UHGV virus genome: UHGV-0061597
From: a virus
Reading direction: 5' to 3' (one strand)
DNA: 12,795 nt
The position numbers were made by a program, and so were the translations under genes. Below, piece after piece: positions 9 through 12,795 of the stretch; position 1 is the first letter of the stretch; each line of letters begins with the position of its first letter. The notes beneath the pieces are model-generated. The model was not told the origin of the DNA. It saw only the letters and a program-made list of their open reading frames with translations, and made no database searches.

Positions 9-821
9 ATGTCTCTCGGTGCACTTGGGCCAGAAAAGGCGTTTGCTGTTCAGGATAAGATGGTTGGTCGCCAGCAGGAGCAGCAAAGAATTAACGAAAC
101 CATTCGCAATAATGACATGACGAATGCGAGGGCTATTAGGGGGCAGGATCTTTCCTATAAGGCTCAAATGGCAAGACTGAATCACGACAAGTATGTGTTT
201 AAGCAGTCACAGGCGGCTCTTGAAAGAGCAGGACAACTTCAGGATATGGATGTTTTGTCTCTTAACTCACAGATAGCAGCGACGGGAATTGATCCGCTAA
301 CCGGTAAAGCTGCAACGTCAGCCAGAATGTCTCAGGCTAAGAGATGGCTTGATGGCAACAATAATTACAACAATGCGTTGATTACTGGTGAGCGAGGGAT
401 AGAGAAAATAGATTCTTTGCTTGGTAAGAAGGAGCTTGAAGGTATCGGTCGCTTCGAAGGAAGAAATATAGATGGCTTCACAAGTGCTGAAGGGCTTGCA
501 AACCGTAATGCGATAGAAGAATTAAAGTCGGGTGCGTTTGTCCAGAACGTGCAGACTATGCGAGGTATGGGTAGCCTCTCCAATGCTGAAGGACAAAAAC
601 TGGAAAACCTTATCGCGAAACTCGATATAACACAGCCTGAAGAGGTCGTCAGAAAACAGTTATCTGAAATCCGATCGCAATATTCTGTATTTCAAAAGGT
701 TGCAGCAAGGGAGGCTGAATCAATGGGATATAGTTCATCAGGTTATGACACATATGTTAGTGAGCGAAAATCAGGAAGCGACAGCAATAAGTCCGGTTTC
801 TCGTCTTTATGGGGTGATTAA
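9..821 (+). CDS. Phage virion internal/DNA-ejection protein candidate (gp20-like position); the 5' end may lie upstream of the window
   Basis: 270-aa ORF, ATG at 9 with no in-frame stop in the 8 nt before it, so the true start could be outside the window. Stop TAA 819-821 overlaps the ATG of the next gene by 1 nt (TAATG). Gln/Ala/Gly-rich, low-complexity composition. Lies immediately upstream of a large Ala/Gly-rich protein and of the sieA-equivalent and immI region, matching the P22 order 7-20-16-sieA-immI-9. Product assignment is by synteny and composition only. Confidence 0.5.
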
Positions 822-2977
822 TGGCTAAAGCATGGAAAGATGTTATCGCTTCTCCACAGTATCAGGCGTTAACTGAAGAACAGAAAGCACAGGCTCAAGC
901 GCAATATTTTGATGAGGTTGTTGCCCCTAAGGCTGGTGACAAATGGGCTGAAGCAAGAGATCAGTTTTATGCAGCATACCCTCCACCTCAGCAGCAGAAA
1001 GAAGAACCATCATTGATGCAACAAGCTGGCGATTGGCTCACTGGTGGTCAAAGTGCAGGGCAAATTGCAGAACAGGCTGGTCGTGGTCTGGTAAACATAC
1101 CATTTGACGTATTGCAGGGTGGCGCAAGTCTGATTAATGCAATCAGCCAGGGGCTTGGTGGCCCCAAGGTTTTGGATGATGTTTATCGCCCTGTCGATCG
1201 ACCTACAGACCCTTACGCGCAAGCCGGTGAAACAATTGGTGGGTATCTCCTGCCAATTGGCACAGCGGCAAAAGCTGCTGGAGCGCCAGCAAAGCTCGCT
1301 GGAGATATCGGTTCCGCAGGAAACATGATTGCAGGTTCTCTTGCTGATGCTGCAAATCAGGATGGGGACTTTGCACAAAATGCTGCCATTAACGGTGGTA
1401 TCAATATTGGTGCTCAAGGCGTTCTTTCAGGTGTCGGGCGCGTTATTGCGCCAAGGGTTTCACAGGCTCTTGGTGGTGCGGCACTGAATTCTGCTAATGA
1501 TGTTTCTAGGATGGCAAAGTCAGGTGCTGGGCGTCAGTCAATTGCCAGTCAGGCCGCTAATGTGTCCGAAGATGTAGCAAAAGCGGCTGAGTCTGCTGGA
1601 ATTGATATAAACGCATTAACACCAGGAATGCGATCTGGAAGTCGTGGAATTGCACAAGCCGAAGGGATATTGGCATCCGAACCAGGAATTGTTCAGGATG
1701 CACATACTAGGGCTTTTAGTGAAATACAGTCGAAATTCCACTCAGCACTTGATGAACTTGGTGCTGAGGCTGGATCTGCATCAGAAAAAAGTGCAGCCAT
1801 AAAACAAAGGGTTTTAGCAAGTATTGATAAAATGAAGAACTCAGAAAAGGCAGCATGGGATAGCGTACGCTCCACGATGCCTGACGCAAAGGCCAGAATG
1901 TCAAACCTGAACGCTACAATTCAGGGTGATATTTTGGCTGGTATGCCGCTAACTCCTGAGATGAAACAATTTGCATCGGCTTATGCTAAAACTGGTAAAA
2001 AAGGAATCACGTTTGATGCCATGAAGGCATGGCGAAGTAAACTTGCTGACGCTGAGCAGAAGTATATAAGGTCTGGTGAGGCAAATACGGCAAGGCGCAT
2101 GGCGGAGCTTCGTGATGCAGCAACGGAAGATATGCGCATAATGGCTCAAAATGGCGGTTTTCTTGATGACTGGCAAAAAGCTAATGATCTGTCAAAAGCA
2201 AGATTTACAGCACAAGAACAGGCTGAAGCAGCGTTTAGAAACCTTGCAACTGATCAGTTAGTCACTGATGGTATTAAAGCCTTGCAAAATTCATCAAAAA
2301 GTGGGACAGGAAAGTTTCATCAGATTATTGGCGCACTGCCAGAGTCTGAGCGATCTCCAGCAATTGCATCAATATTACAAGATGCGGTATCGCAAGGGGT
2401 GCGTGGCGGTAAATCAGAGTCTGCTGGCGTATTCCATATAGCGTCGATCCTTACGCCGCAGAATATTACTGCCATTAGCAAGCACTCGCCAGAAATGGGT
2501 AAGATTGCTAGGGCATACAGCGACCTTGCCAGAGCAGCAACCAGACCACTGCGATATGTAGAGCATACGGGGCGCTCTATACCGGCAATTAACTCTCTTG
2601 AGCAAGGACTGCCAAAAGCTGTCATGACAGTTCTCAATGCAATAGGCAATTCAACATCAGGGGCTATTGTTGGTACCACTGGTGGAGGGATTGTTGGCGG
2701 TGTTGTGGGGGCTGTTTCTGGATCTATAGCTAAAGGGACGATAGAAAAGTTAGCTGCATCCCGCAGTGGTCGTTACGCTATTGAAAAGGCTGTTCAAGAG
2801 GCAACAAAGGCAGTTAAGGTTGGGGCAAGTGATGGTGCATTAGCGGCGGCTGAACGCAGATTTATGGCAAATAAAGCTGCTGTAAAAGCGATACGTGATA
2901 CCGTCGGAAACGAAGAGTTTCAGCGCTTAGCGAGGGGTGGGATTGTGGCATCGCTAAGCGGAATGGAGCGGGAGTAA
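821..2977 (+). CDS. Phage DNA-ejection (injection) protein candidate, gp16-like by position
   Basis: 718-aa ORF translationally coupled to the upstream ORF. Ala/Gly/Gln-rich, with a C-terminal glycine-zipper-like hydrophobic stretch ([25 protein letters not shown]), as expected of membrane-interacting ejection proteins. It is the last gene before the opposite-strand cargo and immI region. The specific family is not verified. Confidence 0.55.
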
Positions 2978-3001
2978 TTAGTAATCCACGGATGGATTCG
3001 T

Positions 3002-3424
3002 TTAGCCATCGGATAGGCGCTCTTTTGCCTCTTCGATTAAATCAGCACAAATAAGAGGTAGCTCTGATGAAACAACTTCCCAGCCAGATTTTTTAACAAC
3101 TTCATTTAACCACTCTTCTCGATCGTGAGTTCCTCTTCTTTTTTCTAGGAGGAAGATTTGAGAGTAAATCTGAATGGCCTTCTCGTTTAGATAAAACGCA
3201 TATTGCCTGTTTAAAACAACATCTGCAAGTATATCAATGCCTTGTTGGGTTTTTGCCGCTACATCTGGCTCTACTCCCATACGAATAGATAAATCGCATA
3301 ACTCAACAAATGCACGCTCTTCAGCGTCGTATTTCATTTTGTAAAAATGTGAAGCCAGTTTTTGTGTTTCGGCGAGTTCTGCCCTTAATTTTTTTATCTT
3401 GCTTCTCGTTAATATACCAAACAC
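3002..3424 (-). CDS. Hypothetical protein, third gene of the minus-strand cargo cassette; start probably GTG at 3424, alternative GTG at 3487
   Basis: The ORF track gives 3002..3487 (161 aa), but its first codon is GTG and the first ATG is 50 codons in. An in-frame GTG at 3424-3422 is preceded by a strong Shine-Dalgarno on the minus strand (AAGGAGG, 5-nt spacer), giving about 140 aa. No transmembrane segment and no motif I recognise. AT-rich codon usage like the two genes upstream of it. Confidence 0.6.
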   Translation of the reverse strand: MFGILTRSKIKKLRAELAETQKLASHFYKMKYDAEERAFVELCDLSIRMGVEPDVAAKTQQGIDILADVVLNRQYAFYLNEKAIQIYSQIFLLEKRRGTHDREEWLNEVVKKSGWEVVSSELPLICADLIEEAKERLSDG

Positions 3425-3551
3425 ACCAACCTCCTTAGTTTTACGCAGGATACCAGATGGTTTGGAGTGAGATAAAGGTTTGTCCACTTTTGGCTATAGC
3501 TTTATGTATCCGTGACGGATGTAATTATCACGGATGCATAAAAATTATATT

Positions 3552-4100
3552 TTAGTGTAATCTCTGATCGTCTGAATCGTGTAAGAACTCCATGAGACTT
3601 TGAACCGGAATTGGTTCTATTGATGACAATGTGAACACAGGAATATTGAGACTTTTGCAACGCTCAAACACTCCCTTATCATGAGTCCATACCTCGTCAG
3701 CATTAATTGCTCTTGCAATTGCTATTATTTGTCTGTCAAACTTAATTTTATTTGCTGTACCTTCTGTGCTAATTTTCCTTAATTCTTTTAATGTTGGTAT
3801 CGATGCGCATTCAATAGCAGCCAACTCATCAAATGATACAGTCTCGAAGCACGATAACGATTTGATAACATTCAGTTTTTCTTGTTGGTAATCTTTATGG
3901 ATTCCAACTAAAAACTCCGCCAATACAGGAGTTGGAACGATGATTGTCCCGTTCTTGTTATCTATTCGATCAACAAGAGCTTCTGCTCTTCTTTTGGCAT
4001 CTGGAATCTCAGAACCAAGTATAGGGTCAGATAATCTATAATCGTGTTCTATATCTGATAGTAGGTATACCAGAATATTGGTATCTAAAATTACTCGCAA
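3552..4100 (-). CDS. PIN-domain (VapC-like) putative ribonuclease
   Basis: 182-aa translation starts MRVILDTNILVYLL, the typical PIN beta1 motif with the first catalytic Asp. Further acidic residues are spaced as in PIN folds (LAEF, DRQIIAIA, WTHDKG). TTG start at 4100-4098 preceded by GAGGAAG. It overlaps the stop of the upstream gene by 10 nt, which indicates translational coupling. Confidence 0.75.
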   Translation of the reverse strand: MRVILDTNILVYLLSDIEHDYRLSDPILGSEIPDAKRRAEALVDRIDNKNGTIIVPTPVLAEFLVGIHKDYQQEKLNVIKSLSCFETVSFDELAAIECASIPTLKELRKISTEGTANKIKFDRQIIAIARAINADEVWTHDKGVFERCKSLNIPVFTLSSIEPIPVQSLMEFLHDSDDQRLH

Positions 4101-4810
4101 TTTATCTTCCTCAGAGTCCTAAGGATTGAATCAACATCGCGTTCCTCGGACCACTGATCTCCAGGAACTTGCTTGATAGCATTAATAGCATCCTTGAGTG
4201 ATGATTTTTTGAGCAATACAAATGAAGTTATTTTTAGTTTCTTTAGCTCCCATTTGTTGTTCTTTTTTTCCCAGCACCCATCTCCTTTAACCCTAATATA
4301 TTTGAATAGATGGGACCCAAGAGCTGCCGCCAAATCAGGGGTTGCCTCGCACTTGAATGTTTCACCGTTGGCTCCCTCAATACGCACAGGTATTGAGTTG
4401 TCTTTTCCGCCAACACTGTATAGCCTTCCTTGAACTTCTGACGTTTTTGTTATGAGTAAAGGGATTGGCTCCTTTTTTACTCGCGGGAATGCGATAATGG
4501 TTGAGTGGTTTCGTCCGAGTAGTTTCGCTGAAAAACCATCATGTTCCAGTAAATTAACAATTTTTTGATACGCGGGTGATTTCTCTTTGGCTGAGAGAGA
4601 GGCCCTTGCTATGACAGCGTTATAACAAATATCATTATCGACCCATGCATTTAAGTCAGCCGATCCTTCACTTACACAGTCGAAGTGAACAGAATCTGCA
4701 GAACCGTATAGATCTACGAGAGCAGACATATACTTGACCAACTTAGCCATTGACAGCTGGCCAGGGGTGGTTCCGTCAAGTTTTAATGTGAGTCCATTGC
4801 TTTTTTTCAT
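4091..4810 (-). CDS. Hypothetical protein, upstream partner of the PIN nuclease (candidate sensor or antitoxin-like component)
   Basis: 239-aa ORF with ATG at 4810-4808 and stop TAA at 4093-4091, overlapping the PIN gene start. No transmembrane segment, no Walker motif, no family I recognise. Far larger than a canonical VapB antitoxin. Same orientation as mnt, 49 bp downstream of the mnt stop. Confidence 0.75.
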   Translation of the reverse strand: MKKSNGLTLKLDGTTPGQLSMAKLVKYMSALVDLYGSADSVHFDCVSEGSADLNAWVDNDICYNAVIARASLSAKEKSPAYQKIVNLLEHDGFSAKLLGRNHSTIIAFPRVKKEPIPLLITKTSEVQGRLYSVGGKDNSIPVRIEGANGETFKCEATPDLAAALGSHLFKYIRVKGDGCWEKKNNKWELKKLKITSFVLLKKSSLKDAINAIKQVPGDQWSEERDVDSILRTLRKINCE

Positions 4811-4859
4811 TTGTCATCACGCGAGCCAATATCGATATGGTTAACTGTACGTCATAAGC

Positions 4860-5114
4860 CTATAACTTACTTTTGCTATAAATATTTTTCAGCGTTTCAA
4901 AGACCATCTTCTTAACAACGTCAGATTGCTCATCCGCGACTCGCTCAGCTTCGTCTCGATAGCCTACAATTGATGATGGCTTTGAGAGAGCATCCTGAAC
5001 GATTTGTAATAACTCAGAGTTCATTGACCTTCCGTTAGCCTCTGCTCTTAATTTCAATTTTTCTCTTACTTCCAAAGGCATACGGAAGTTAAAGTGCGGA
5101 TCGTCTCTAGCCAT
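4860..5114 (-). CDS. mnt: Mnt repressor (ribbon-helix-helix, immI maintenance-of-lysogeny repressor)
   Basis: 84-aa translation MARDDPHFNFRMPLEVREKLKLRAEANGRSMNSELLQIVQDAL closely matches my memory of P22 Mnt, and its N-terminus has the same RHH motif as Arc. It is divergently oriented from arc, with the operators between them. Confidence 0.9.
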   Translation of the reverse strand: MARDDPHFNFRMPLEVREKLKLRAEANGRSMNSELLQIVQDALSKPSSIVGYRDEAERVADEQSDVVKKMVFETLKNIYSKSKL

Positions 5115-5141
5115 GCCATCACCCCAAGTTAGTGTATTGAC

Positions 5142-5162
5142 ATGATAGAAGCACTCTACTAT
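5142..5162. promoter_or_regulatory. Arc operator (Oarc), 21 bp
   Basis: ATGATAGAAGCACTCTACTAT matches the P22 arc operator sequence as I recall it (TAGA half-sites). It lies between the divergent mnt and arc genes, where Pant and Pmnt overlap. Confidence 0.75.
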
Positions 5163-5170
5163 ATTCTCAA

Positions 5171-5189
5171 TAGGTCCACGGTGGACCTA
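5171..5189. promoter_or_regulatory. Mnt operator (Omnt), a perfect inverted repeat overlapping Pant
   Basis: TAGGTCCAC-G-GTGGACCTA, 9-bp arms around one central base, seen directly. It contains the GGTCCACGGTGGACC core of the P22 mnt operator as I recall it and sits about 16 bp upstream of the arc ATG. Confidence 0.8.
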
Positions 5190-5204
5190 TATTGTGAGGT
5201 AAAT

Positions 5205-5363
5205 ATGAAAGGAATGAGCAAAATGCCGCAGTTCAATTTGCGGTGGCCTAAAGAAGTATTGGATTTGGTGCGCAAGGTAGCTGAAGAGAACGGGCGATCT
5301 GTTAACTCTGAGATTTATAAGCGAGTGATGGACAGCCTGAAGAGAGAGGGGATAACGGTATGA
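5205..5363 (+). CDS. arc: Arc repressor (ribbon-helix-helix)
   Basis: The ORF track starts at 5142, but the real start is the ATG at 5205 preceded by GAGG (5196-5199). The translation [52 protein letters not shown] (52 aa) is nearly identical to P22 Arc as I recall it. Confidence 0.92.
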   Translation: MKGMSKMPQFNLRWPKEVLDLVRKVAEENGRSVNSEIYKRVMDSLKREGITV

Positions 5364-5581
5364 GGTTTATTGAGGTTGATGAGATTGGCTATGAGAATGC
5401 ACTTGGTAGAGGTAAATCTTTAGTTAACGTTAATGGCATTGAGTCGATAAGGAGCGGTGAATTTACGGAGATCAGAATGATGTCAGGTGGAATCATTCCT
5501 TGCCGTGATTCAGTAGAGTCAATCAAAGCAAGAATGAGTGGTCAGTGGCTTTATAACTACAGTGACTTACAAAAACAGTGA
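5360..5581 (+). CDS. Hypothetical small protein (73 aa) translationally coupled to arc
   Basis: Its ATG overlaps the arc stop (ATGA at 5360-5363). A purine-rich tract AGAGAGGGG lies upstream. It fills a roughly 280-bp arc-ant gap that I recall being short in P22. No recognisable domain; coding status unverified. Confidence 0.4.
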
Positions 5582-5642
5582 AGCCCCAACTGCTGGAACA
5601 GTCGGGGCTTCGGTATCAACAAATCAGATAGGAATTATTGAT

Positions 5643-6572
5643 ATGACAAGTTTAGCAAAGTCAACATTAAATTGCACTAACAGCATCACCATTTCAGACG
5701 TCAAGATTCATATGGATTCAGAGGGGCGTTACTCGCTTAATGACCTGCACAAGGCATCAGGTAAAGAGCGTCGTCATGAGCCTGCGGCGTGGCTGCGACT
5801 CGAACAAACCAATGAGTTAGTTCAAGAAATTCTAAATACACAGATGTGTGTATTTAAAAATGGCGATAACTTTAATTCTTCAGAATCGCAGATTAAGAAG
5901 CCAATGGACTCTAAGAAGGGTCGCTACGGAGGCACCTACGTGTGCAAGGAGCTTGTTTACTCCTACGCCATGTGGATTAGCGCAGCCTTTGCGCTGAAGG
6001 TTATCCGTGCATATGACGCAATGGTTACTGCCACACAAGAGAGGAAAGCTATTGGCGGTAAAACTTCAGTAGCTGAACGCACACCGCTACGAGATGCAGT
6101 AAACATGCTGGTAGGAAAGAAAGGACTTCGCTATGACGATGCATACAATATGGTTCATCAGCGTTTTGGTATTGACAGCATTGATGAACTTTCAATTGAA
6201 CAAATCCCGCTGGCCGTAGAGTACATCCACAGGGTAGTGCTTGAAGGTGAGTTCATCGGCAAACAAGAGAAGAAAACCAACGAGCTTTCTGCAAAAGAAG
6301 CAAACAGCCTTGTATGGCTATGGGATTATGCCAACCGCTCACAGGCATTATTCCGCGAACTGTATCCGGCATTAAAACAAATTCAATCGAACTATTCCGG
6401 CAGATGTCATGACTGCGGTTATGAGTTCTCCCGTATTATCGATATAGCGAGAGACGTTTTAATCAATCACACACGAGATGTTGATATCAATGAGCCAGAC
6501 GGACCAACGAATCTTTCCGCATGGATGAGACTTAAGAATAAAGAATTACCTCCTTCAGTACATAACTACTGA
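5643..6572 (+). CDS. ant: Antirepressor, KilA-N domain type (Ant)
   Basis: The long ORF starts at 5538, but the ATG at 5643 with an upstream AGGA puts the KilA-N-like motif ([32 protein letters not shown] ... [18 protein letters not shown]) at the N-terminus. A C-terminal antirepressor-like domain follows. It sits downstream of arc in the immI operon. 309 aa from 5643. Confidence 0.8.
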
Positions 6573-6590
6573 CAGATAACCAACGCAACG

Positions 6591-6614
6591 ACCCAGCTTC
6601 GGCTGGGTTTTTTT
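6591..6614 (+). terminator. Rho-independent terminator after ant
   Basis: ACCCAGC-TTCG-GCTGGGT stem-loop followed by a 7-nt T run, 19 bp after the ant stop. Confidence 0.85.
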
Positions 6615-6750
6615 ATGCCCAAAATTCACCGCAGCAACTAAGCGGCGATGGCCTTGATGGATAGCACTACACAAAAAGTGTAGTGCAAAAAGCAAACAAA
6701 TACTCACCGTAGCTACGCTGCGGCGATTCATTGTATCTGGAGCAAATTAA

Positions 6751-8808
6751 ATGACAGACATTACAGCCAATGTTGTAGTGAGTATGCCTTCGCAACTCTT
6801 CACTATGGCGCGTTCTTTTAAAGCCGTAGCCAATGGCAAAATTTATATCGGTAAAATTGACACTGACCCGGTAAATCCTGAAAACCAGATTCAGGTTTAT
6901 GTGGAGAACGAAGACGGCTCTCACGTTCCTGTTCCGCAACCAATCATCATTAATGCTGCTGGATATCCGGTATATAACGGACAGATTGCCAAATTCGTTA
7001 CTGTACAGGGCCATTCTATGGCTGTTTATGATGCGTACGGTGTGCAGCAGTTCTATTTTCCGAATGTGCTGAAGTATGACCCGGATCAGTTAAGACAAGA
7101 GTTAGCAACAGAGGGTAATGAAATACTTGTTGACGACTCCCGTATTGCAGTTAAAAGTGTTCATGTAAATTCAAAACTTAGAACACAGCACAATAAAAAC
7201 GCAGAAATAATCACGCCAAATGATTTTATATCAAATTATGACATGATATCTGCAGCTATTAACTCTGGAGAGAGTGCCGCAGTATTTAATTCCAGGTATG
7301 CATTCACAATAACAGTTGGGGAATATGGTAATTTTAAATCTATTAGTGATGCTCTAAACTCGGCTGTTGCACTGCGTCCACTATGGAAAAATGGCATTGA
7401 CTTTTGCATAATTAAAATTCTTTCCGGTTTTGTGCTCAATGAGCAAATAGAAATTTCAGCAGGATGTGACTTATCATGGATTAAAATAATATCAGAAGAC
7501 TCAGTGGTTTTCTCTGATACCAGTTTGTTTACTAAAACTGTTAGGACGTATTACGAATACAAATATTTATTTTACATTTGCGATGCAGCAAAAAGTCCTG
7601 TATTTGCTATTCAGATTGAAGAAAATAGAGATGATAGCGATGTTTGTGCATTTATTGTAACTCAAAAAGCTGAACTTAATTTCTATCCGTATTCAGGTGC
7701 TCGAAAGTTCTACGTTGGAATTCATGGTAGTTTTGGTGCAAAAATTAGTGCATATCATACCGGATGTGCTCCTGATGAGGAAAGTGTTGCTGCATATATG
7801 CCAGAAGGATATTACGTATGTGATTTTTCTTATAGCAGATACTCTTCCCTGCAACTGGTAAATAATGTCAAGGCATCAATGCCTGTAAGCAAGTTTGAAC
7901 GGTGCACAGAGAGTACGGTTGCGTCAGTTAATTGTATTTATAATGTTAAAGCAGATTTTCAGGGGTCAAGTGCAAGCTATTGTTATATAGGATGGAATGT
8001 AAGAGATGGTTCAAATGTTAATATACGCGACCATAAAACTATACATTGCTCATATCGTGGATTAACCTGCATTCATACAGCATATGTTGATGCAAGACGA
8101 CATGACGTTGAAGAAAGTGATGCAGAAACAAGTGGTAAAGTCCTTGAACCAAATATTGAAAAAGGTTTTTATGGATGTGCACTTGGTGTGCGTATTGATG
8201 GTGCGGGTTGCGTTGATGTTGCTGGTAATGATATGCGCAATTGTGGAACAGCCGTTAATGCAGACACTGGTGCTGTTATTTCAGGAAAGGCTGTAGATAT
8301 CTCAGGGGCTGAGCTGGGATTTGATTGCCATGCAGGAGCATCTGTTAATTTTCCAAGGCTATGGGGTACAGATATAAAAAAATTAATGCACCTCCAAGAT
8401 GGTGTAAGGTTTAACTCTAATATTTGTCATGTATTTGGTGCAAATCCCACAAAAGATATTAGATGGATTGATGTAGAGAGATCTGAAGCTTCTTTTATGA
8501 ATGCAACGCTGGATGCAGATTCAGGATTTATTGCCGACTGTGGTAGTAGGATAACCATTGAAGGAAGTAAAGTTAAAAACCAAACAATAAGAAGTTTTTT
8601 TGGATCACATGTGGCTATAAATAATACTGTTGCTGACAGAACTTATTCAGATATAGCCGATGTTCCGCAGTTGACTATTAGTGGAGGATCTTTTATTTCT
8701 GCTACAGGATATTCTAATTCTGACTCCAGCCCTCTTAGGTTGAGCACAACACGAAATACACTTGGAGTTGGAGGAGCCATATTTTCAACCAATGGGGAAG
8801 TTTCATGA
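6751..8808 (+). CDS. Tailspike protein: P22-like N-terminal head-binding domain fused to a divergent receptor-binding domain
   Basis: The first ~113 aa ([34 protein letters not shown] ... NVLKYDPDQ) closely match the P22 gp9 N-terminal domain as I recall it. The remaining ~570 aa show no resemblance to P22 gp9 and are Cys-rich and AT-rich. GGAG lies upstream of the ATG. 685 aa. Confidence 0.92.
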
Positions 8809-9101
8809 TTAAGAGCATTGATGTCACTCCATTTCTTCACTCGCTTTGCGCTTTTGTGGCTCAGGTACTGGTTGGTATTTTTACCGGAAACTGGGCTTAC
8901 GGTGCGATAGCCGGTTGTACGTTCTTCATTGCGCGTGAACACACCCAGGCAGAATATCGCTGGATAGAAAAGTTTGGGAAAGGGAAACGTATCAACATGC
9001 CGTGGTGGGGAGGTTTTGATCCACGCGTGTGGGATGTGGGAAGTCTGTTGGATTTTGCTGTTCCTGTTGTTTTTTGTTTTTGTGTTTATTTCTCTATTTG
9101 A
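8805..9101 (+). CDS. Small hydrophobic (membrane) protein of unknown function, coupled to the tailspike gene
   Basis: ATG overlaps the tailspike stop (ATGA at 8805-8808). 98 aa with two hydrophobic segments ([27 protein letters not shown] and [18 protein letters not shown]). No family recognised. Confidence 0.55.
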
Positions 9102-9294
9102 CTGCTACCGCGCCATTAAATGGTGCGGTATTCAACCTGCTCTTCACTGTTTGTTTCTTCAGAGTCATGTAAAAGGTGAGCTTTATTCTCGGCATGAAAA
9201 ACAGGGAATTGACGATGTTAAAGTAACAAAAAACCATAAATGGTTTATTATGCGTAATGCTTTACTGTTCAGGAGGTTGTTATGCATATAAACG

Positions 9295-9708
9295 GTGGAA
9301 AACATGTCAGCTCAACTAACCAGTGAAACTTTAAATCAGTGGCTTAGCATGAGTTCTCTGGCGGCGGTGATAGCAGGAGTTCCTCCTGAGGTTGCTTTGG
9401 GTGCTTTGGCTGGAGCGGTAATTTTTGTTACCTCTGCAGTAGAGTACCCCATCCGTCGCCGGGTGCTCCTGTCGATGCTCAGCTTTCTTTGCGGCCTTCT
9501 CTTTTACAAACCAGCAGCATCAATTCTTATCGGCATAGCCAGCCTGATCCCTACCATCACGCAGGACTCTTTTGAAAAAGGGATTGTTTTCTCTGCAGGC
9601 GCATTCGTGTCAGCAATTGTCGCTGTGCGTATTGGTATATGGCTCTATCACCGTTCCGATAATCCACGCGAGTTAATTCCGGGGAGAAAAGACGATGGTA
9701 ACGCATGA
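9295..9708 (+). CDS. Putative holin or lysis-associated membrane protein (multi-TM)
   Basis: 137 aa with at least three hydrophobic helices. First gene of a tightly overlapping set of four ending in endolysin and Rz. The start is uncertain: GTG at 9295 or ATG at 9304. Confidence 0.55.
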   Translation: MENMSAQLTSETLNQWLSMSSLAAVIAGVPPEVALGALAGAVIFVTSAVEYPIRRRVLLSMLSFLCGLLFYKPAASILIGIASLIPTITQDSFEKGIVFSAGAFVSAIVAVRIGIWLYHRSDNPRELIPGRKDDGNA

Positions 9709-10003
9709 GTTTTTTTTGCTTATCACCAATGCAGTTATTTGCACTGGCATAGCAATTCGCGTTGTCACATTCCGGCGTAACGGCTCTCAACACCGAAGGT
9801 GGGGAGGATGGCTTGCTTATTTCCTGATTGTTGCTGCGGCCAGTATTCCTGTTCGTGTCGCCTATGCAATCTGGTTACGTACGCCAATGGCTGTGGATTT
9901 ATCTGAGGTCATTATCAACGCTGTCATGCTAGCTGCGGTTATTAAAACGCGCGGTAACGTCGTTCAAATTTTCAAAGTATCGAGGTCTAAACATGGAGAT
10001 TAA
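9695..10003 (+). CDS. Putative holin or antiholin (2-3 TM)
   Basis: 102 aa with hydrophobic segments and a charged C-terminus (KVSRSKHGD). Overlaps the upstream gene by 14 nt and the endolysin start by 11 nt. Confidence 0.6.
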
Positions 10004-10622
10004 ACAATTCCAGCGAGCTGCTGGTATCAGCGAGGCACTGGCCGCACGCTGGTTCTCGCATATAACTTCTGCGATGAAAGAGTTTGGTATCAGCAAACCA
10101 GAAGATCAGGCTATGTTTATTGCTCAGGTCGGGCATGAGTCTGGAGGCTTCACCCGGTTGCAGGAGAATTTCAACTACAGCGTCAGCGGACTGGCTAACT
10201 TTGTTCGGGCTGGGCGTCTCACTCAGGGACAGGCCAACGCATTGGGGCGACGTGCAGGCGAACCACCATTGCCACTTGAGCGCCAGAGAGCGATTGCCAA
10301 TCTGGTGTACAGCAAACGCATGGGGAACAATGCCCCTGGTGATGGCTGGAACTACCGTGGGCGCGGGCTTATCCAGGTTACCGGTTTGAATAACTATCGT
10401 GACTGTGGAAACGGTCTTAAGGTTGACCTGCTGGAGAGTCCTGAACTGCTGGCGCAGGACGAATACGCGGCTCGTAGCGCGGCGTGGTTCTTTGCCAGCA
10501 AAGGATGCATGAAGTATACCGGCGATATTGCACGTGTAACTCTGATTATCAATGGTGGCCGGAACGGCATCGACGACCGGCGCGCGCGATACATCAATGC
10601 CAGTAAGGTGCTGGCGGTATGA
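9993..10622 (+). CDS. Endolysin, glycoside hydrolase family 19 (chitinase-like lysozyme) type
   Basis: 209-aa translation ([22 protein letters not shown] ... [20 protein letters not shown] ... [13 protein letters not shown]) matches GH19-type endolysins of Salmonella podophages as I recall them. GAGG lies 6 nt before the ATG. Confidence 0.9.
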
Positions 10623-11101
10623 TCTGGGCATTCGTAAAAGCATACCGGAAACAGTTGATTATCATGGCGGTGCTTGCTGTTCTGGTCATATCAGGAGTTG
10701 TTGCCTGGAGTGTACACGGCAGTCGTCAGTACGACGCCGGGTATGCGCAGGCGAAAGAAGACCGCAAAACCGAAGATGAGAGAATTCGTCAGCACTACGA
10801 ACAGGAGAAAGCGATCAATGAACGTGAAGCGCAGCAGAGGATCGACCAGGCGCGCAATGATGCTCTTGATGCTGCCGCTCGCGCTGGCCGGTTGCAGCAA
10901 CAGCTCGTTGCCATCCGTGAGCAGCTCAGGCAGTATAACGCCATTGTCGGCGCTGGGACGTCAGCCGCAGACACCGGAGTTTTGCTTGCCGACGTGCTCA
11001 GTAAATCTCTCGAGAGAAACAGACAACTGGCAGAGTATGCTGACCGGGCAGCCGAAGCCGGAAGAGTCTGTGAAAAACAGTACGACACCCTGACCAGATA
11101 G
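10619..11101 (+). CDS. Rz-like i-spanin
   Basis: ATG overlaps the endolysin stop (ATGA). 160 aa with an N-terminal transmembrane helix ([18 protein letters not shown]) followed by a charged coiled-coil periplasmic domain. Contains an embedded +1-frame lipoprotein gene. Confidence 0.85.
10818..11093 (+). CDS. Rz1-like o-spanin lipoprotein, embedded in Rz in the +1 frame
   Basis: The internal ATG at 10818 is preceded by AGGAG (10803-10807). Signal peptide with lipobox ([13 protein letters not shown]) and a Pro-rich mature part. Lies wholly inside the Rz ORF. Alternative starts at 10857 or 10860 are possible. Confidence 0.7.
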   Translation: MNVKRSRGSTRRAMMLLMLPLALAGCSNSSLPSVSSSGSITPLSALGRQPQTPEFCLPTCSVNLSRETDNWQSMLTGQPKPEESVKNSTTP

Positions 11102-11256
11102 CATGGCATTTTTCATGGTACTGATTTCCGGTGACGGTATATAAAACGGTACGATAAAAATTGAGATTTGGAAAAATGTTATCACTCAATTGGTTATGGT
11201 TATCGTAAATAATTGAGTGGGAATGATTTTAATCCCTGCACTATGAATGAACAAAA

Positions 11257-11282
11257 CCCTCTGTTACTACAGAGGGTTTTTT
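11257..11282. terminator. Bidirectional rho-independent terminator between the lysis cassette and the convergent minus-strand operon
   Basis: CCCTCTGT-TACT-ACAGAGGG hairpin flanked by AAAA upstream and TTTTTT downstream. Sits between convergent genes. Confidence 0.75.
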
Positions 11283-11320
11283 ATCTTCAAGAATCATAGG
11301 CTTGAAGTTACTAACATCGA

Positions 11321-11860
11321 TTAATTAAACCAGCTGTCCGATTTGTTCTCTTCTGCTTTGCCCACGCTTTTCATCAGATCGCGACCGCCTTCAGTCATAT
11401 TTCTGTTGGCGTCAGCTTCAGATTGCACCACATCGGTTTGCGCAGCTTTGTGCTTCAGTTCCTGATCGATAAATTCGTTTTCTCGCTTAACGCGGGCTTC
11501 TTCTTTTGCCAGCGCCAGTTTTTGTTTCTGAATCTCTAAGCTGCGTAGCTCATCTTCATAACTTTGATCGCGTTTTTTGTCCGCAGAGGCTTCGGCGTCC
11601 AGTTTATCCTGACGAGCTTTCTTATTTGCCGCTGCCGTTGCCGCTCTTTTGTTAGCGGCGGCCTGGGCATTTGCGCGACGTTGCTTCTCTTGCTGGATTT
11701 TCCTGTTGCGCTCCGCGACCCATTCGTCATGCTGCCTTTGCTCTTCATTTTTACCTTGCTGTTCAGCTTCTGCTACAGCAGAGAGTTGATCCTGCAATGA
11801 TGAGGCGATAGCCGGATAGCTTAAGGAGGCCAAGATGGCGCAAAGAAAAACTTTCTTCAT
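11321..11860 (-). CDS. Secreted/periplasmic Lys/Ala/Glu-rich coiled-coil protein
   Basis: 179 aa with an N-terminal signal peptide (MKKVFLCAILASLSYPAIASS) and a highly charged low-complexity body. AGGAGGAG lies upstream on the minus strand, 15 bp after the lipoprotein gene stop, so the two are probably one operon. Confidence 0.7.
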   Translation of the reverse strand: MKKVFLCAILASLSYPAIASSLQDQLSAVAEAEQQGKNEEQRQHDEWVAERNRKIQQEKQRRANAQAAANKRAATAAANKKARQDKLDAEASADKKRDQSYEDELRSLEIQKQKLALAKEEARVKRENEFIDQELKHKAAQTDVVQSEADANRNMTEGGRDLMKSVGKAEENKSDSWFN

Positions 11861-11875
11861 GACTCCTCCTGATTA

Positions 11876-12394
11876 TTAGCTCTTTTCAGGACATTTAGTA
11901 TTTGGCTGAATACGCGTTTCGTTATACGTTGTGGTAATAACAACGGCTAAACCTGTCGTAAACTGGCACTCTTTACCCACCTGGGTAGAGGTATACACTT
12001 TGGTGCCTTCCTTATATGTTAAAGAAACACCTTCCACTAAGGTTTTATCATTCACCATAGAACCCACTGCCGCGCCTACAGCTCCGCCGCCAACTGCCCC
12101 TGCCGTCGTTCCGGAATTGCTGCCAGAACCGACGTTGTGGCCGATAACACCGCCAGCGACTGCGCCAATAAGCGCGCCGAAGGCTTGTGCGTTCCGTTTA
12201 TTTTGGGAGTTGTCTACGGCAACTTTTGCGGGAAGAATGGAAATAATATTAACGGTTTTAGTTTCTTGTTTGGTATTCAGTTGATCGGTTTGATAAACAT
12301 CGGCGGCATGATCGTCAGCATTTGACTGGCATCCTGCCAGAGTGAATGACGCTAACATTGCCACAGGCAGAAGACATTTTTTAAATTTCATCAC
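11876..12394 (-). CDS. Lipoprotein with glycine-zipper domain (YcfJ/SlyB-like family)
   Basis: 172 aa with signal peptide and lipobox (LAGC), and a glycine-zipper motif (FGALIGAVAGGVIGHNVG) resembling E. coli YcfJ as I recall it. AAGGAA lies upstream. Followed to the right by a roughly 200-bp extremely AT-rich region. Confidence 0.75.
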   Translation of the reverse strand: MMKFKKCLLPVAMLASFTLAGCQSNADDHAADVYQTDQLNTKQETKTVNIISILPAKVAVDNSQNKRNAQAFGALIGAVAGGVIGHNVGSGSNSGTTAGAVGGGAVGAAVGSMVNDKTLVEGVSLTYKEGTKVYTSTQVGKECQFTTGLAVVITTTYNETRIQPNTKCPEKS

Positions 12395-12795
12395 TATTCC
12401 TTGTTATACACATTACGAAAAATAAGACATTTAAGATCATCAAAAGAGGAAAGTAAATGTATTGCGTATAAAGGGATAGATTAAATTTATTAAAATTCAC
12501 GCAGGGAATAATTTATAAAAATATATCATTACAATATATATATTAATTTTATATTTATTTCGCAGCCAAACAGGATAAACATCAGTCAGGACAAAGACGT
12601 AAAATTTAAGATGAAAGAATATCTGCCGCTTTGATAATTCCAAAGAGCAAAAGCATCCGACAGCGAAGTGCCGTTAGGTTCTGTGAAAGTGGAGAAGGTA
12701 ACCGCTAACGTTGTACCGGTGATTCGACGGAGAGTGTGGATTGATCCTACCCACGTAATATGGACACAGGCCTAAGCGAGGTTCTGGTTTTCAAA

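Follow-up and report, generated by a model that had tools for sequence, protein, structure and literature searches.

In the Uetakevirus phage epsilon15, the map runs from the tailspike, by way of other genes, to gp23, holin, endolysin, and Rz/Rz1 and then to attP and int. The two-component spanins of epsilon15, phiV10, TL-2011b, SPN1S, SPN9TCW, and SPC32H/N are included in the Bcep176 spanin family as described on the basis of i- and o-spanin clustering (Kongari et al. 2018, PMC6139136), and the SPN1S endolysin is described as lysing Gram-negative cells (PMC12329726). Exchange of the receptor-binding domain between Lederbergvirus and Uetakevirus prophages has been documented (Virol J 2023, PMC10408124), and temperate phages are reported to acquire resident-prophage DNA by homologous recombination (PMC3945230). 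On the P22-like (Lederbergvirus) side, the HK620 map has S, R, and Rz at 16.5 to 17.8 kb, the terminase at 19.7 kb, and the tailspike at 34.5 kb, while phage JEP4 and CB7286-type prophages have a small open reading frame (ORF) and then int downstream of the tailspike.

The window analyzed here, 12,795 nucleotides long, is an entire SPAdes-style metagenome contig (NODE_2890_length_12795_cov_44.6, ENA assembly ERZ1314608). Judged from its sequence, the region from 9304 to 11101 is an ordinary lysis cassette of the epsilon15/phiV10 type (Uetakevirus) in its native position, with genes for two holin-family membrane proteins, a soluble GH19 endolysin, an Rz i-spanin, and an embedded Rz1 lipoprotein. 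The gene order, the overlapping frames, the orthologous proteins, and the place just upstream of attP/attR are those of the Uetakevirus cassette. hol1 overlaps hol2 by 14 nt, hol2 overlaps the endolysin gene by 11 nt, and the endolysin gene overlaps Rz by 4 nt (ATGA); the lengths of hol1, hol2, the endolysin gene, Rz, and Rz1 (405, 309, 630, 483, and 276 nt, respectively) are identical in epsilon15. Amino acid identity to epsilon15 gp23 to gp26 and Rz1 is 93% for hol1, 82% for hol2, 84% for the endolysin, 86% for Rz, and 88% for Rz1. At the DNA level, the cassette is 83 to 99.9% identical to those of epsilon15, phiV10, TL-2011b, and HEMP4, with epsilon15 itself at only 83%. It was found beside yfgI in about 10% of complete Escherichia coli genomes (532 of 5,426), and the complete EC332 genome has, in this order, tail protein, ORF98, holin, holin, GH19, Rz, yfgI, yfgH. 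Promoters and terminators predicted in the neighborhood of the cassette were no more numerous than in shuffled sequence, with only a weak -35/-10 match at 9223 to 9251. The RNA fold of 9100 to 9320 (z = -2.2) contains a GC hairpin just 3' of the 98-amino-acid ORF described below.

The first gene, hol1 (9304 to 9708, plus strand; alternative GTG start at 9295), matches Phage_holin_8 (PF16931; E = 4.4e-12) and the holin family phrog_198 (E = 6.9e-42) and is the orthologue of epsilon15 gp23. hol2 (9695 to 10003, plus strand; 102 amino acids) matches the 3TM holin family PF05449 (E = 5.1e-27) and phrog_217 (E = 1.5e-35) and is the orthologue of gp24. hol1 likely starts at ATG 9304 (134 amino acids) rather than at GTG 9295 (137 amino acids), ATG 9304 being the start in epsilon15, in RefSeq prophages, and in the contig's own gene calls. 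The two starts are in frame and do not form a dual start of the lambda S105/S107 type, the extension being Met-Glu-Asn without Lys or Arg. Topology was read from a Kyte-Doolittle scan rather than from a dedicated predictor, and the PF05449 and PF16931 matches agree with it. For hol1, the scan gave about three hydrophobic spans together with an RRR loop and a C-terminal tail that is charged; for hol2, it gave transmembrane domains (TMDs) at residues 6 to 24, 43 to 61, and 65 to 83, a basic loop at residues 25 to 35 with four Arg, and a basic C-terminal tail. hol2 thus has the three spans, basic cytoplasmic loop, and charged C-terminal tail of a class I (3-TMD, N-out/C-in) holin, and hol1 is similar.

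Gene pairs for a holin and an antiholin are known from P1 (LydA/LydB) and T4 (T/RI), and hol1 and hol2 could likewise encode a holin with a dedicated antiholin instead of two co-acting hole formers, an option that we take seriously but toward which we do not quite lean. The pair is kept adjacent and overlapping in all of the epsilon15-like phages listed (as "holin (x2)" or as "membrane protein" and "holin"), its members fall in different Pfam families, and hol2 by itself resembles a classic class I holin in both size and topology; yet hol1, too, is built like a holin, with about three TMDs and a C-terminal tail that is charged, and has matches to two holin families (PF16931 and phrog_198), and neither a lambda-like dual-start motif nor a positive charge in the GTG 9295 extension marks it as an antiholin. 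A literature search found no experiment on hol1 or hol2 function in epsilon15-like phages, and the division of labor between the two holin-family proteins is a question for these phages generally.

The endolysin gene (9993 to 10622, plus strand; 209 amino acids) encodes a GH19 enzyme (PF00182, E = 1.5e-8; phrog_181, E = 2.5e-91) of which residues 1 to 208 match the SPN1S endolysin structure (PDB 4OK7; E = 1.7e-116). Glu49 and Glu58, the two glutamates typical of GH19, align with E51 and E60 of PaGH19Lys (9EOI), which are called catalytic by comparison with SPN1S. No 19-residue window reaches a hydropathy of 1.2, and there is accordingly no signal or SAR segment; the endolysin is predicted to be cytoplasmic and holin dependent.

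The Rz gene (10619 to 11101, plus strand; 160 amino acids) matches PF10721 (DUF2514; E = 1.9e-41) and the Rz-like spanin family phrog_312 (E = 4.3e-58), and its product has the build of an i-spanin, with an N-terminal TMD at residues 14 to 32 and a highly charged, helix-prone, periplasmic remainder. Rz1 (10818 to 11093, plus strand; 91 amino acids; Rz-like spanin family phrog_11621, E = 3.8e-40) is wholly embedded in Rz. It starts 199 nt past the Rz start, so that it is read in the +1 frame, and terminates 8 nt short of the Rz stop; an AGGAG (10803 to 10807) precedes its ATG by 10 nt. Its product, equal in length to epsilon15 Rz1, has the features of an embedded o-spanin lipoprotein: a signal of 25 residues and the lipobox LAGC, with Cys26 followed by Ser. 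By homology, lysis would begin with the buildup in the inner membrane of hol2, as a class-I-like 3-TMD holin, and of hol1, as a second 3-TMD holin-family protein that may serve as a co-holin or a regulator, and with the opening of holes at a set time. The GH19 muramidase, cytoplasmic and without a signal or SAR sequence, would exit through these holes and cut the glycan strands of the cell wall, and in the last step the spanin complex of Rz in the inner membrane and the lipoprotein Rz1 in the outer membrane would break the outer membrane.

The initial annotation had described the lysis genes as overlapping, with Rz1 embedded in the +1 frame behind an AGGAG, and all five were recovered where it had placed them, save that hol1 likely starts at ATG 9304 and not at GTG 9295. 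Its two holin-like ORFs both encode membrane proteins, with about three hydrophobic spans apiece, and the resemblance that it saw between the endolysin and the GH19 enzymes of Salmonella podophages is borne out by about 84% identity to that of epsilon15 and by the match to SPN1S 4OK7.

Downstream of the cassette, alignment with the empty site of strain 13TMH22 and with epsilon15 attP delimits the phage arm of attR (11102 to 11211). It is followed by the 18-nt att core, ATTGAGTGGGAATGATTT (11212 to 11229), which equals the 3' end of guaA and begins 110 nt past the Rz stop. Matches to phage records stop at 11228/11229, and from 11212 to 12795 the window is 100.000% identical to 13TMH22, a nonlysogen in which the guaA site is present and empty. 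This host flank contains the terminator hairpin of the guaA-yfgI intergenic region (11253 to 11280; 12-bp stem), identical in the empty site, followed by yfgI (11321 to 11860, minus strand) and yfgH (11876 to 12394, minus strand), both as annotated by RefSeq in EC332 and 13TMH22. The contig stops in the end of an IS3 element (12744 to 12795). The yfgH-IS3 junction has a 100% match in 33 complete genomes, with the element annotated as an IS3 family transposase; the one carrier inspected is a nonlysogen, and this IS3 was found in no lysogen of the collection. No tRNA attachment site was found in the window, the attachment site being the 3' end of guaA. By these comparisons, the cassette is identified as the terminal gene block of a prophage of the epsilon15 type that has integrated into guaA at its 3' end. 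yfgI and yfgH had also been considered as phage morons on account of their hits to phrog_1094 and phrog_1277 ("DNA methyltransferase"), and this was rejected in view of the empty site in 13TMH22 and the 100% identity of the flank, which mark both as host genes beside attB. The membership of these genes in the two families probably stems from over-generously cut prophage records such as that of TL-2011b.

Upstream of the cassette, the tailspike gene (6751 to 8808, plus strand; 685 amino acids) begins with a P22-type head-binding domain (about 6751 to 7090; PF09008 Head_binding, E = 1.8e-66), followed by the receptor-binding domain. The tailspike has the same length and about 99% nucleotide identity in the P22-like prophages CB7286 and PCP07083 and in phages HZ41 and JEP4, and many members of its protein cluster are "partial," having been truncated where a contig ends. 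Between the tailspike gene and the cassette lies ORF98 (8805 to 9101, plus strand), encoding a small 98-amino-acid membrane protein (phrog_1443, E = 3.3e-55) with hydrophobic spans at about residues 7 to 43 and 78 to 96 and a C terminus of the epsilon15-like type. ORF98 has no Pfam or PADLOC match, PADLOC likewise gave no match for the immI cargo genes, and the 428 homologues of ORF98 are all unnamed. ORF98 travels with the receptor-binding domain; the exact ORF98 protein was found on 25 long contigs, every one of which has a 729-amino-acid epsilon15-type tail protein upstream.

The receptor-binding domain and most of ORF98 form a module (7444 to 9064) that is common to two classes of loci and within which the contig switches lineage. 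Class A comprises epsilon15-like prophages, whose matches to the window start at 7444, and class B comprises P22-like ones, whose matches end at 9064. From 7620 to 9044, each class shares at least 99% identity with the window, and the common stretch is about 1.4 to 1.6 kb. Diagnostic single-nucleotide polymorphisms (SNPs) in the window are of class B up to 7617, of class A from 7809 to 8314, of class B from 8608 to 8766, and of class A from 8857 onward. The haplotype that the window has in the shared module was found in no complete genome; the closest match reaches 99.7%. Patchiness of A and B alleles was also found in natural isolates, and both classes occur in one draft genome (2744054675), where the contigs break inside the module.

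The contig as a whole has the order gp20-gp16-immI-tailspike-ORF98-lysis, in which the ejection proteins, immI, and the tailspike head-binding domain are P22-like; this left part in turn joins an ST131-type immI to a CB7286-type tailspike, a combination that is new. From the position of the cassette downstream of the tailspike, which holds with the 98-amino-acid ORF in between, the initial annotation had argued for a mosaic join of a P22-like part with a lysis module of another podophage lineage. Its premise that P22-like references place lysis before the head genes is borne out by the HK620 map, and the JEP4/CB7286-type tailspike leads to int; the composite nature of the contig also stands, with epsilon15/phiV10 (Uetakevirus) as the other lineage. 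The join itself, however, lies not between the tailspike and the lysis genes, as proposed, but inside the shared receptor-binding/ORF98 module (7444/7620 to 9064). Nor has the lysis module moved: the epsilon15 map itself runs from tailspike to lysis to attP, and the order is therefore native to the lineage and involves no relocation, the cassette abutting an epsilon15-type attR in guaA.

The linkage of the P22-like and epsilon15-like parts is probably an assembly chimera, produced by a path through the repeat shared by two prophages in the sample. Searches with the whole window did not find the hybrid in E. coli genomes or phage records, and the segment from 6600 to 9900, at a coverage of at least 80%, was found in none of the 5,426 complete E. 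coli genomes and none of 50,697 phage records, every match to it belonging either to class A and starting at 7444 or to class B and ending at 9064. In IMG/VR, searched with the tailspike protein, the 13 loci with the module divide into 7 of class B and 6 of class A with no hybrid, epsilon15-type lysis genes occur in 0 of 73 IMG/VR loci with a P22-type head-binding tailspike, the 25 contigs with ORF98 include no hybrid, and an exact look-up of the tailspike protein returned this ENA contig only. The co-residence of both classes in draft genome 2744054675, where contigs break within the module, the many tailspike relatives truncated at contig ends, and the lack of the window's module haplotype among complete genomes also favor a chimera. 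Given a hybrid seen nowhere else, a single metagenome contig, and the alternating SNPs, we rate a chimera, as the probable reading, above a real recombinant, which we consider doubtful. The B-A-B-A switching is as expected from the collapse of two near-identical copies; natural isolates are also patchy, however, so that alternating SNPs do not by themselves point to an artifact. Some observations fit a chimera less well. An unresolved 1.4-kb repeat usually brings an assembly to a halt, as it did in the isolate drafts, whereas a true hybrid, as a single-copy genome, would also yield a contig that crosses it; the contig is reported in two samples, which would make the structure reproducible if they are independent; and in the host flank, 100% identical to one lineage, no mixture of haplotypes is seen.

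Were the contig correct, a P22-like genome would have recombined at guaA with a resident epsilon15-like prophage via the shared module, and the window would be the right-hand recombinant junction, with the epsilon15 lysis cassette merely lying downstream; we hold such an event to be possible but rather unlikely. Campbell-type insertion of a whole P22-like circle would leave a nested double prophage that carries the module twice, and replacement would leave a hybrid prophage, probably defective; P22-like entry at guaA through the shared module, and not by the phage's own integrase at argW, is as doubtful as the junction itself. A stretch of 1.4 to 1.6 kb at more than 99% identity would be ample for RecA or phage recombinases, the exchanged allele patches in isolates show that both classes recombine in nature, and both co-reside in one genome. 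The crossing of the repeat is expected if the sample holds one copy, the tailspike and ORF98 frames are intact, and the report from two samples counts here as well. Set against this are the absence of the hybrid from every collection searched, the need for at least three switches if the window is set against the common haplotypes of classes A and B, and the derivation of the linkage on one molecule from a single short-read metagenome contig, although absence from databases is no disproof of a recombinant prophage; a nested double prophage, moreover, would also hold two copies of the module and present an assembler with the same ambiguity. P22-like phages are as a rule mosaic, and the contig order could be taken for a viable new phage type with a P22-like virion and immI and with lysis genes after the tailspike that replace or duplicate the lambda-like S-R-Rz block. 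This we regard as very improbable. An epsilon15-type attR and host DNA follow the cassette directly, so that it marks a prophage end and not an internal P22-like module; P22-like phages with the same tailspike run on into intS and argW; the order occurs in no phage record or IMG/VR contig; and the contig covers one genome end only, so that a second lysis block upstream, if present, would lie beyond it.

The cassette thus adds nothing new, being one more instance of a module that some 10% of complete E. coli genomes carry, with an endolysin family that already has a solved structure. Contigs that cross lineages through the shared tailspike module should not be taken for new mosaic phages without read-level support; because modules more than 99% identical are shared between Lederbergvirus and Uetakevirus prophages able to co-reside, caution is warranted with such contigs. 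If the junction were real, a host-range module would have mediated the fusion of two unrelated temperate podophage genomes, and host-range cassettes shared across podophage genera would provide portable homology for intergenus genome fusion, which would be of moderate interest to specialists in phage evolution and no surprise.

Compared with the exchanges described in PMC10408124, the receptor-binding module found here likewise occurs behind both a P22-type head-binding anchor and an epsilon15-type anchor, with the downstream gene traveling along; in the exchanges described there the domain alone is exchanged, whereas the contig runs on into the genome of the other lineage, which may not be real. 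The lambda/P22/HK620 lysis module shares the logic of the cassette, namely, a holin, a soluble endolysin, a two-component spanin with an o-spanin embedded in the +1 frame, and overlapping genes. It differs in having one holin gene with two starts rather than two holin-family genes, and its endolysin is a transglycosylase (lambda type) or a lysozyme (P22 type) and not a GH19 enzyme. The cassette is not a P22-like lysis module, whose lambda-type genes lie between the late promoter and the terminase: in HK620, S, R, and Rz precede the terminase, whereas the window's genes stand at the prophage end after the tailspike, and the HK620 proteins are unrelated to those of the window, with 15 to 23% global identity, which is at noise level. 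The closest relatives are epsilon15 and the other Uetakevirus members phiV10, TL-2011b, SPN1S, and SPN9TCW, which have the same five genes with the same order, lengths, and overlaps. Relative to the SPN1S endolysin 4OK7 and LysSA05 of epsilon15, the endolysin of the window matches over its full length, keeps both catalytic glutamates, and lacks a secretion signal; about 15% of residues differ in the window allele, which is known from sequence. Rz and Rz1, 86 to 88% identical to those of epsilon15, show no difference from the Bcep176 two-component spanins and are a further member of that family. In epsilon15, the cassette likewise lies after the tailspike region and directly before attP, with the same att core, but the reverse-strand O-antigen conversion genes gp21 and gp22 separate the cassette from the tailspike, where the window and E. 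coli prophages of the same type have the forward 98-amino-acid ORF instead.

The ORF listing and family searches agreed with the gene content of the initial annotation: two holin-like genes, a GH19 endolysin, and Rz with Rz1 embedded in its +1 frame behind AGGAG, all on the plus strand. The first gene, hol1 (9304 to 9708), matches Phage_holin_8 and PHROG 198, and hol2 (9695 to 10003) matches PF05449, a 3-TM holin family, and PHROG 217. The endolysin (9993 to 10622) matches GH19 and PHROG 181 ("endolysin"), Rz (10619 to 11101) matches DUF2514 and PHROG 312 ("Rz-like spanin"), and Rz1 (10818 to 11093) matches PHROG 11621 ("Rz-like spanin"). Adjacent genes overlap by 14, 11, and 4 nt. The proposed hol1 start, an in-frame GTG at 9295, was not retained, as ATG 9304 is the start in every annotated relative; because the GTG extension carries no positive charge, hol1 is without a lambda-like dual-start motif. 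A hydropathy scan found about three membrane spans in each holin-like protein, confirming both as membrane proteins, a single N-terminal span in Rz, and none in the endolysin, which is therefore without a signal or SAR segment. The Rz1 ATG has AGGAG 10 nt upstream, and its product begins with a basic n-region and an LAGC lipobox with Ser following Cys. The suggested likeness of the endolysin to enzymes of Salmonella podophages was borne out by a full-length match to the solved SPN1S endolysin (4OK7; E = 1.7e-116). Glu49 and Glu58 are kept and are the counterparts of the residue pair assigned as catalytic in the related PaGH19Lys through comparison with SPN1S.

Based on homology throughout, hol1 and hol2 would build up in the inner membrane late in infection. 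The likeliest hole former is hol2, with the size of a class I holin, three spans, a basic cytoplasmic loop, and a basic tail, while hol1, of similar build but from another holin family, may act as co-holin or regulator. The soluble GH19 muramidase would be freed through the holes to cut glycan strands, and inner-membrane-anchored Rz and the outer-membrane lipoprotein Rz1 would form a spanin complex disrupting the outer membrane. A literature search for experimental work on hol1 and hol2 of epsilon15-like phages found none. Upstream of hol1, a strong Shine-Dalgarno sequence (AGGAGG, 9271 to 9276) precedes ATG 9282, which opens a 14-codon ORF in a different frame from hol1, spanning the hol1 start (9304) and stopping at 9324 to 9326. 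The Shine-Dalgarno sequence and ATG are kept upstream of the epsilon15 equivalent of hol1, but the short ORF there has 12 codons and a different frame. This upstream ORF may exert translational control on hol1.

Matches to phage records end at 11228/11229. Alignment of the window with the unoccupied site of strain 13TMH22 (guaA, yfgI, yfgH, IS3, yfgG) and with epsilon15 attP revealed an 18-nt att core, ATTGAGTGGGAATGATTT, at 11212 to 11229, made up of the final four guaA codons with the stop and three further bases. This makes the cassette the terminal coding block, ahead of attR, in an epsilon15-like prophage. A candidate reading of the genes at 11321 to 12394 as phage morons was rejected, since alignment with the empty site identifies them as host yfgI and yfgH. 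The right end of the contig (12744 to 12795) is the terminal sequence of the IS3 inserted between yfgH and yfgG, and 33 complete Escherichia coli genomes share the yfgH-IS3 junction at 100% identity. One of these, 13TMH22, was inspected and has an empty guaA attachment site; no lysogen with this insertion was found in the complete E. coli genome collection. In several lysogens among the NCBI genomes (loci L090 and L092 to L095), an IS200-family (Y1 transposase) element lies between the cassette end and yfgI, at or near attR. The TL-2011b deposit (JQ011317.1) includes host yfgI, yfgH, and yfgG past attR (41360 to 43105), which is probably how these host proteins came to have PHROGs families, including one with the label "DNA methyltransferase."

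EC332, a complete genome, carries epsilon15-type head and tail genes followed by a 729-aa tail protein, a 98-aa ORF, holin, holin, GH19, Rz, yfgI, and yfgH, and matches covering at least 80% of 9100 to 12795 occur in 532 of the 5426 complete E. coli genomes. In the epsilon15-like lineage, the lysis genes thus normally follow the tailspike. The initial annotation had proposed a mosaic join from an unusual gene order; P22-like and other-podophage (epsilon15) sequences do share the contig, but the order ceases to be unusual because the lineage is epsilon15-like. Its statement that P22-like references place lysis before head genes was correct: in HK620, S/R/Rz (16.5 to 17.8 kb) come before terminase (19.7 kb), and the tailspike (34.5 to 36.6 kb) is succeeded by a terminator, a gene for O-antigen polymerase, and int. 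Nor is tailspike-then-lysis the order in P22-like phages and prophages with this very tailspike (JEP4, HZ41, CB7286, and PCP07083), where a small ORF, intS, and tRNA-Arg follow. In HK620-type prophages (L005, L008, and L089), the attP core (1368 to 1383 in HK620) flanks int on its xis side; therefore, tailspike, ORF98 (the 98-aa ORF), and intS stay adjacent in the prophage, beside tRNA-Arg (argW).

From position 1 to about 7090 the window is P22-like, with the gp20 and gp16 ejection proteins, immI with Mnt, Arc, and Ant, and a P22 head-binding tailspike domain. Positions 50 to 7091 match, at 98.3% identity, a prophage found in ST131 strains that has a different tailspike, and from 6704 on the window tracks CB7286-type prophages, the switch falling within the conserved head-binding domain (6704 to 7091). 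These alignments make the P22-like part a novel combination in its own right, of an ST131-type prophage and a CB7286-type tailspike. Between gp16 and mnt in immI, three minus-strand cargo genes (3002 to 4810) occupy the position of sieA in P22: an ORF of 161 aa, a gene for a 182-aa PIN-domain protein, and, overlapping it, one for a protein of 239 aa. They gave no PADLOC match, and the block recurs in ST131 prophages, annotated as PIN or VapC toxin family protein.

A search with 6600 to 9900 defined two classes: epsilon15-like prophages (class A) match 7444 to 9900 and P22-like prophages (class B) about 6704 to 9064, each at about 99%. Given this clean split, the receptor-binding part of the tailspike (6751 to 8808) and most of ORF98 (8805 to 9101) form a module common to both lineages. 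The lineages are >99% identical over about 7620 to 9044, and the lineage switch of the contig falls inside this module. Prophages of Lederbergvirus and Uetakevirus have been described as exchanging receptor-binding domains, in some cases together with a gene behind the tailspike (PMC10408124). ORF98, a membrane protein (phrog_1443) whose start overlaps the tailspike stop (ATGA), travels with the receptor-binding domain between the two lineages and occupies the position of O-antigen-modifying genes in other members. Its 428 unnamed homologues come from Enterobacteriaceae and from other groups, and it has no Pfam or PADLOC match. At 99.3% identity, the receptor-binding domain (7179 to 8812) also occurs, with the annotation tail fiber, in Escherichia phage 92CQ (130 kb), whose genome is of a third, unrelated type.

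The window corresponds to one complete contig, NODE_2890_length_12795_cov_44.6, from an ENA metagenome assembly, and we consider it rather probable, partly from the way de Bruijn assemblers handle near-identical repeats, that its hybrid linkage is an assembly chimera. Compared with 7 sequences of class A and 11 of class B, its alleles are B to 7617, A at 7809 to 8314, B at 8608 to 8766, and A from 8857, an alternation that a collapsed two-copy repeat gives. Classes A and B do co-reside: the draft isolate UViG 2744054675 (IMG/VR) has both a P22-like and an epsilon15-like copy of the module (L021 and L024, on contigs 000005 and 000004). Both contigs stop at window position 7858, 127 nt past the SNP at 7731, as expected of a k=127 assembly halting at a repeat, and the tailspike 90% cluster holds many "partial" proteins truncated at contig ends. 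De Bruijn assemblers usually stop at near-identical repeats rather than cross them. For that reason, a contig that crosses the repeat fits a single-copy hybrid. A real homologous recombinant, as a nested or hybrid prophage, is a possible though doubtful source. The alternation is unspecific, natural isolates also being patchy (L019, L009/L010, L014, and L018); two samples are recorded for the contig; and the host flank has one unmixed haplotype, which matches 13TMH22 at 100.000% identity across 1584 nt.

Against a real recombinant, no second hybrid was found. None of 5426 complete E. coli genomes or 50,697 phage records matched at least 80% of 6600 to 9900, and in IMG/VR contigs with the module, matches ended at 9064 in 7/7 of class B and began at 7444 in 6/6 of class A. 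These lysis genes are absent from all 73 IMG/VR loci that have a P22-type head-binding tailspike, and exact ORF98 on 25 long contigs has an epsilon15-type tail gene upstream in every case. The exact tailspike protein occurs in this contig only. The shared module is present in only 16 complete genomes (11 class A and 5 class B), none with the window haplotype (best, 99.7%). A stable new phage architecture is highly improbable. The contig is a composite, real as sequence, with a putative biological linkage. Fusion of two podophage genomes by recombination through a shared host-range module is a tentative reading and, if true, would be of moderate interest.

DNA searches identify the cassette as the epsilon15/phiV10 group block, with 99.9% identity to HEMP4, 92 to 95% to TL-2011b, ZX5, and phiv142-3, 89.6% to phiV10, and 82 to 83% to epsilon15 and SPN1S. 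It is present also in the 115- to 138-kb records PH444 and BP9. The spanins of epsilon15, phiV10, TL-2011b, and SPN1S have been placed in the "Bcep176" family (Kongari et al. 2018; PMC6139136). Past the epsilon15 tailspike gp20 come two O-antigen genes on the reverse strand and then gp23 (405 nt), holin (309 nt), endolysin (630 nt), and Rz (483 nt) with embedded Rz1 (276 nt), followed by attP protein-binding sites and int. The window genes have exactly these lengths, and their products (hol1, hol2, endolysin, Rz, and Rz1) are 93, 82, 84, 86, and 88% identical to those of epsilon15. At 15 to 23% global identity, they show no relationship to S, R, and Rz of HK620. This lysis module was known before and stands here in its native context.
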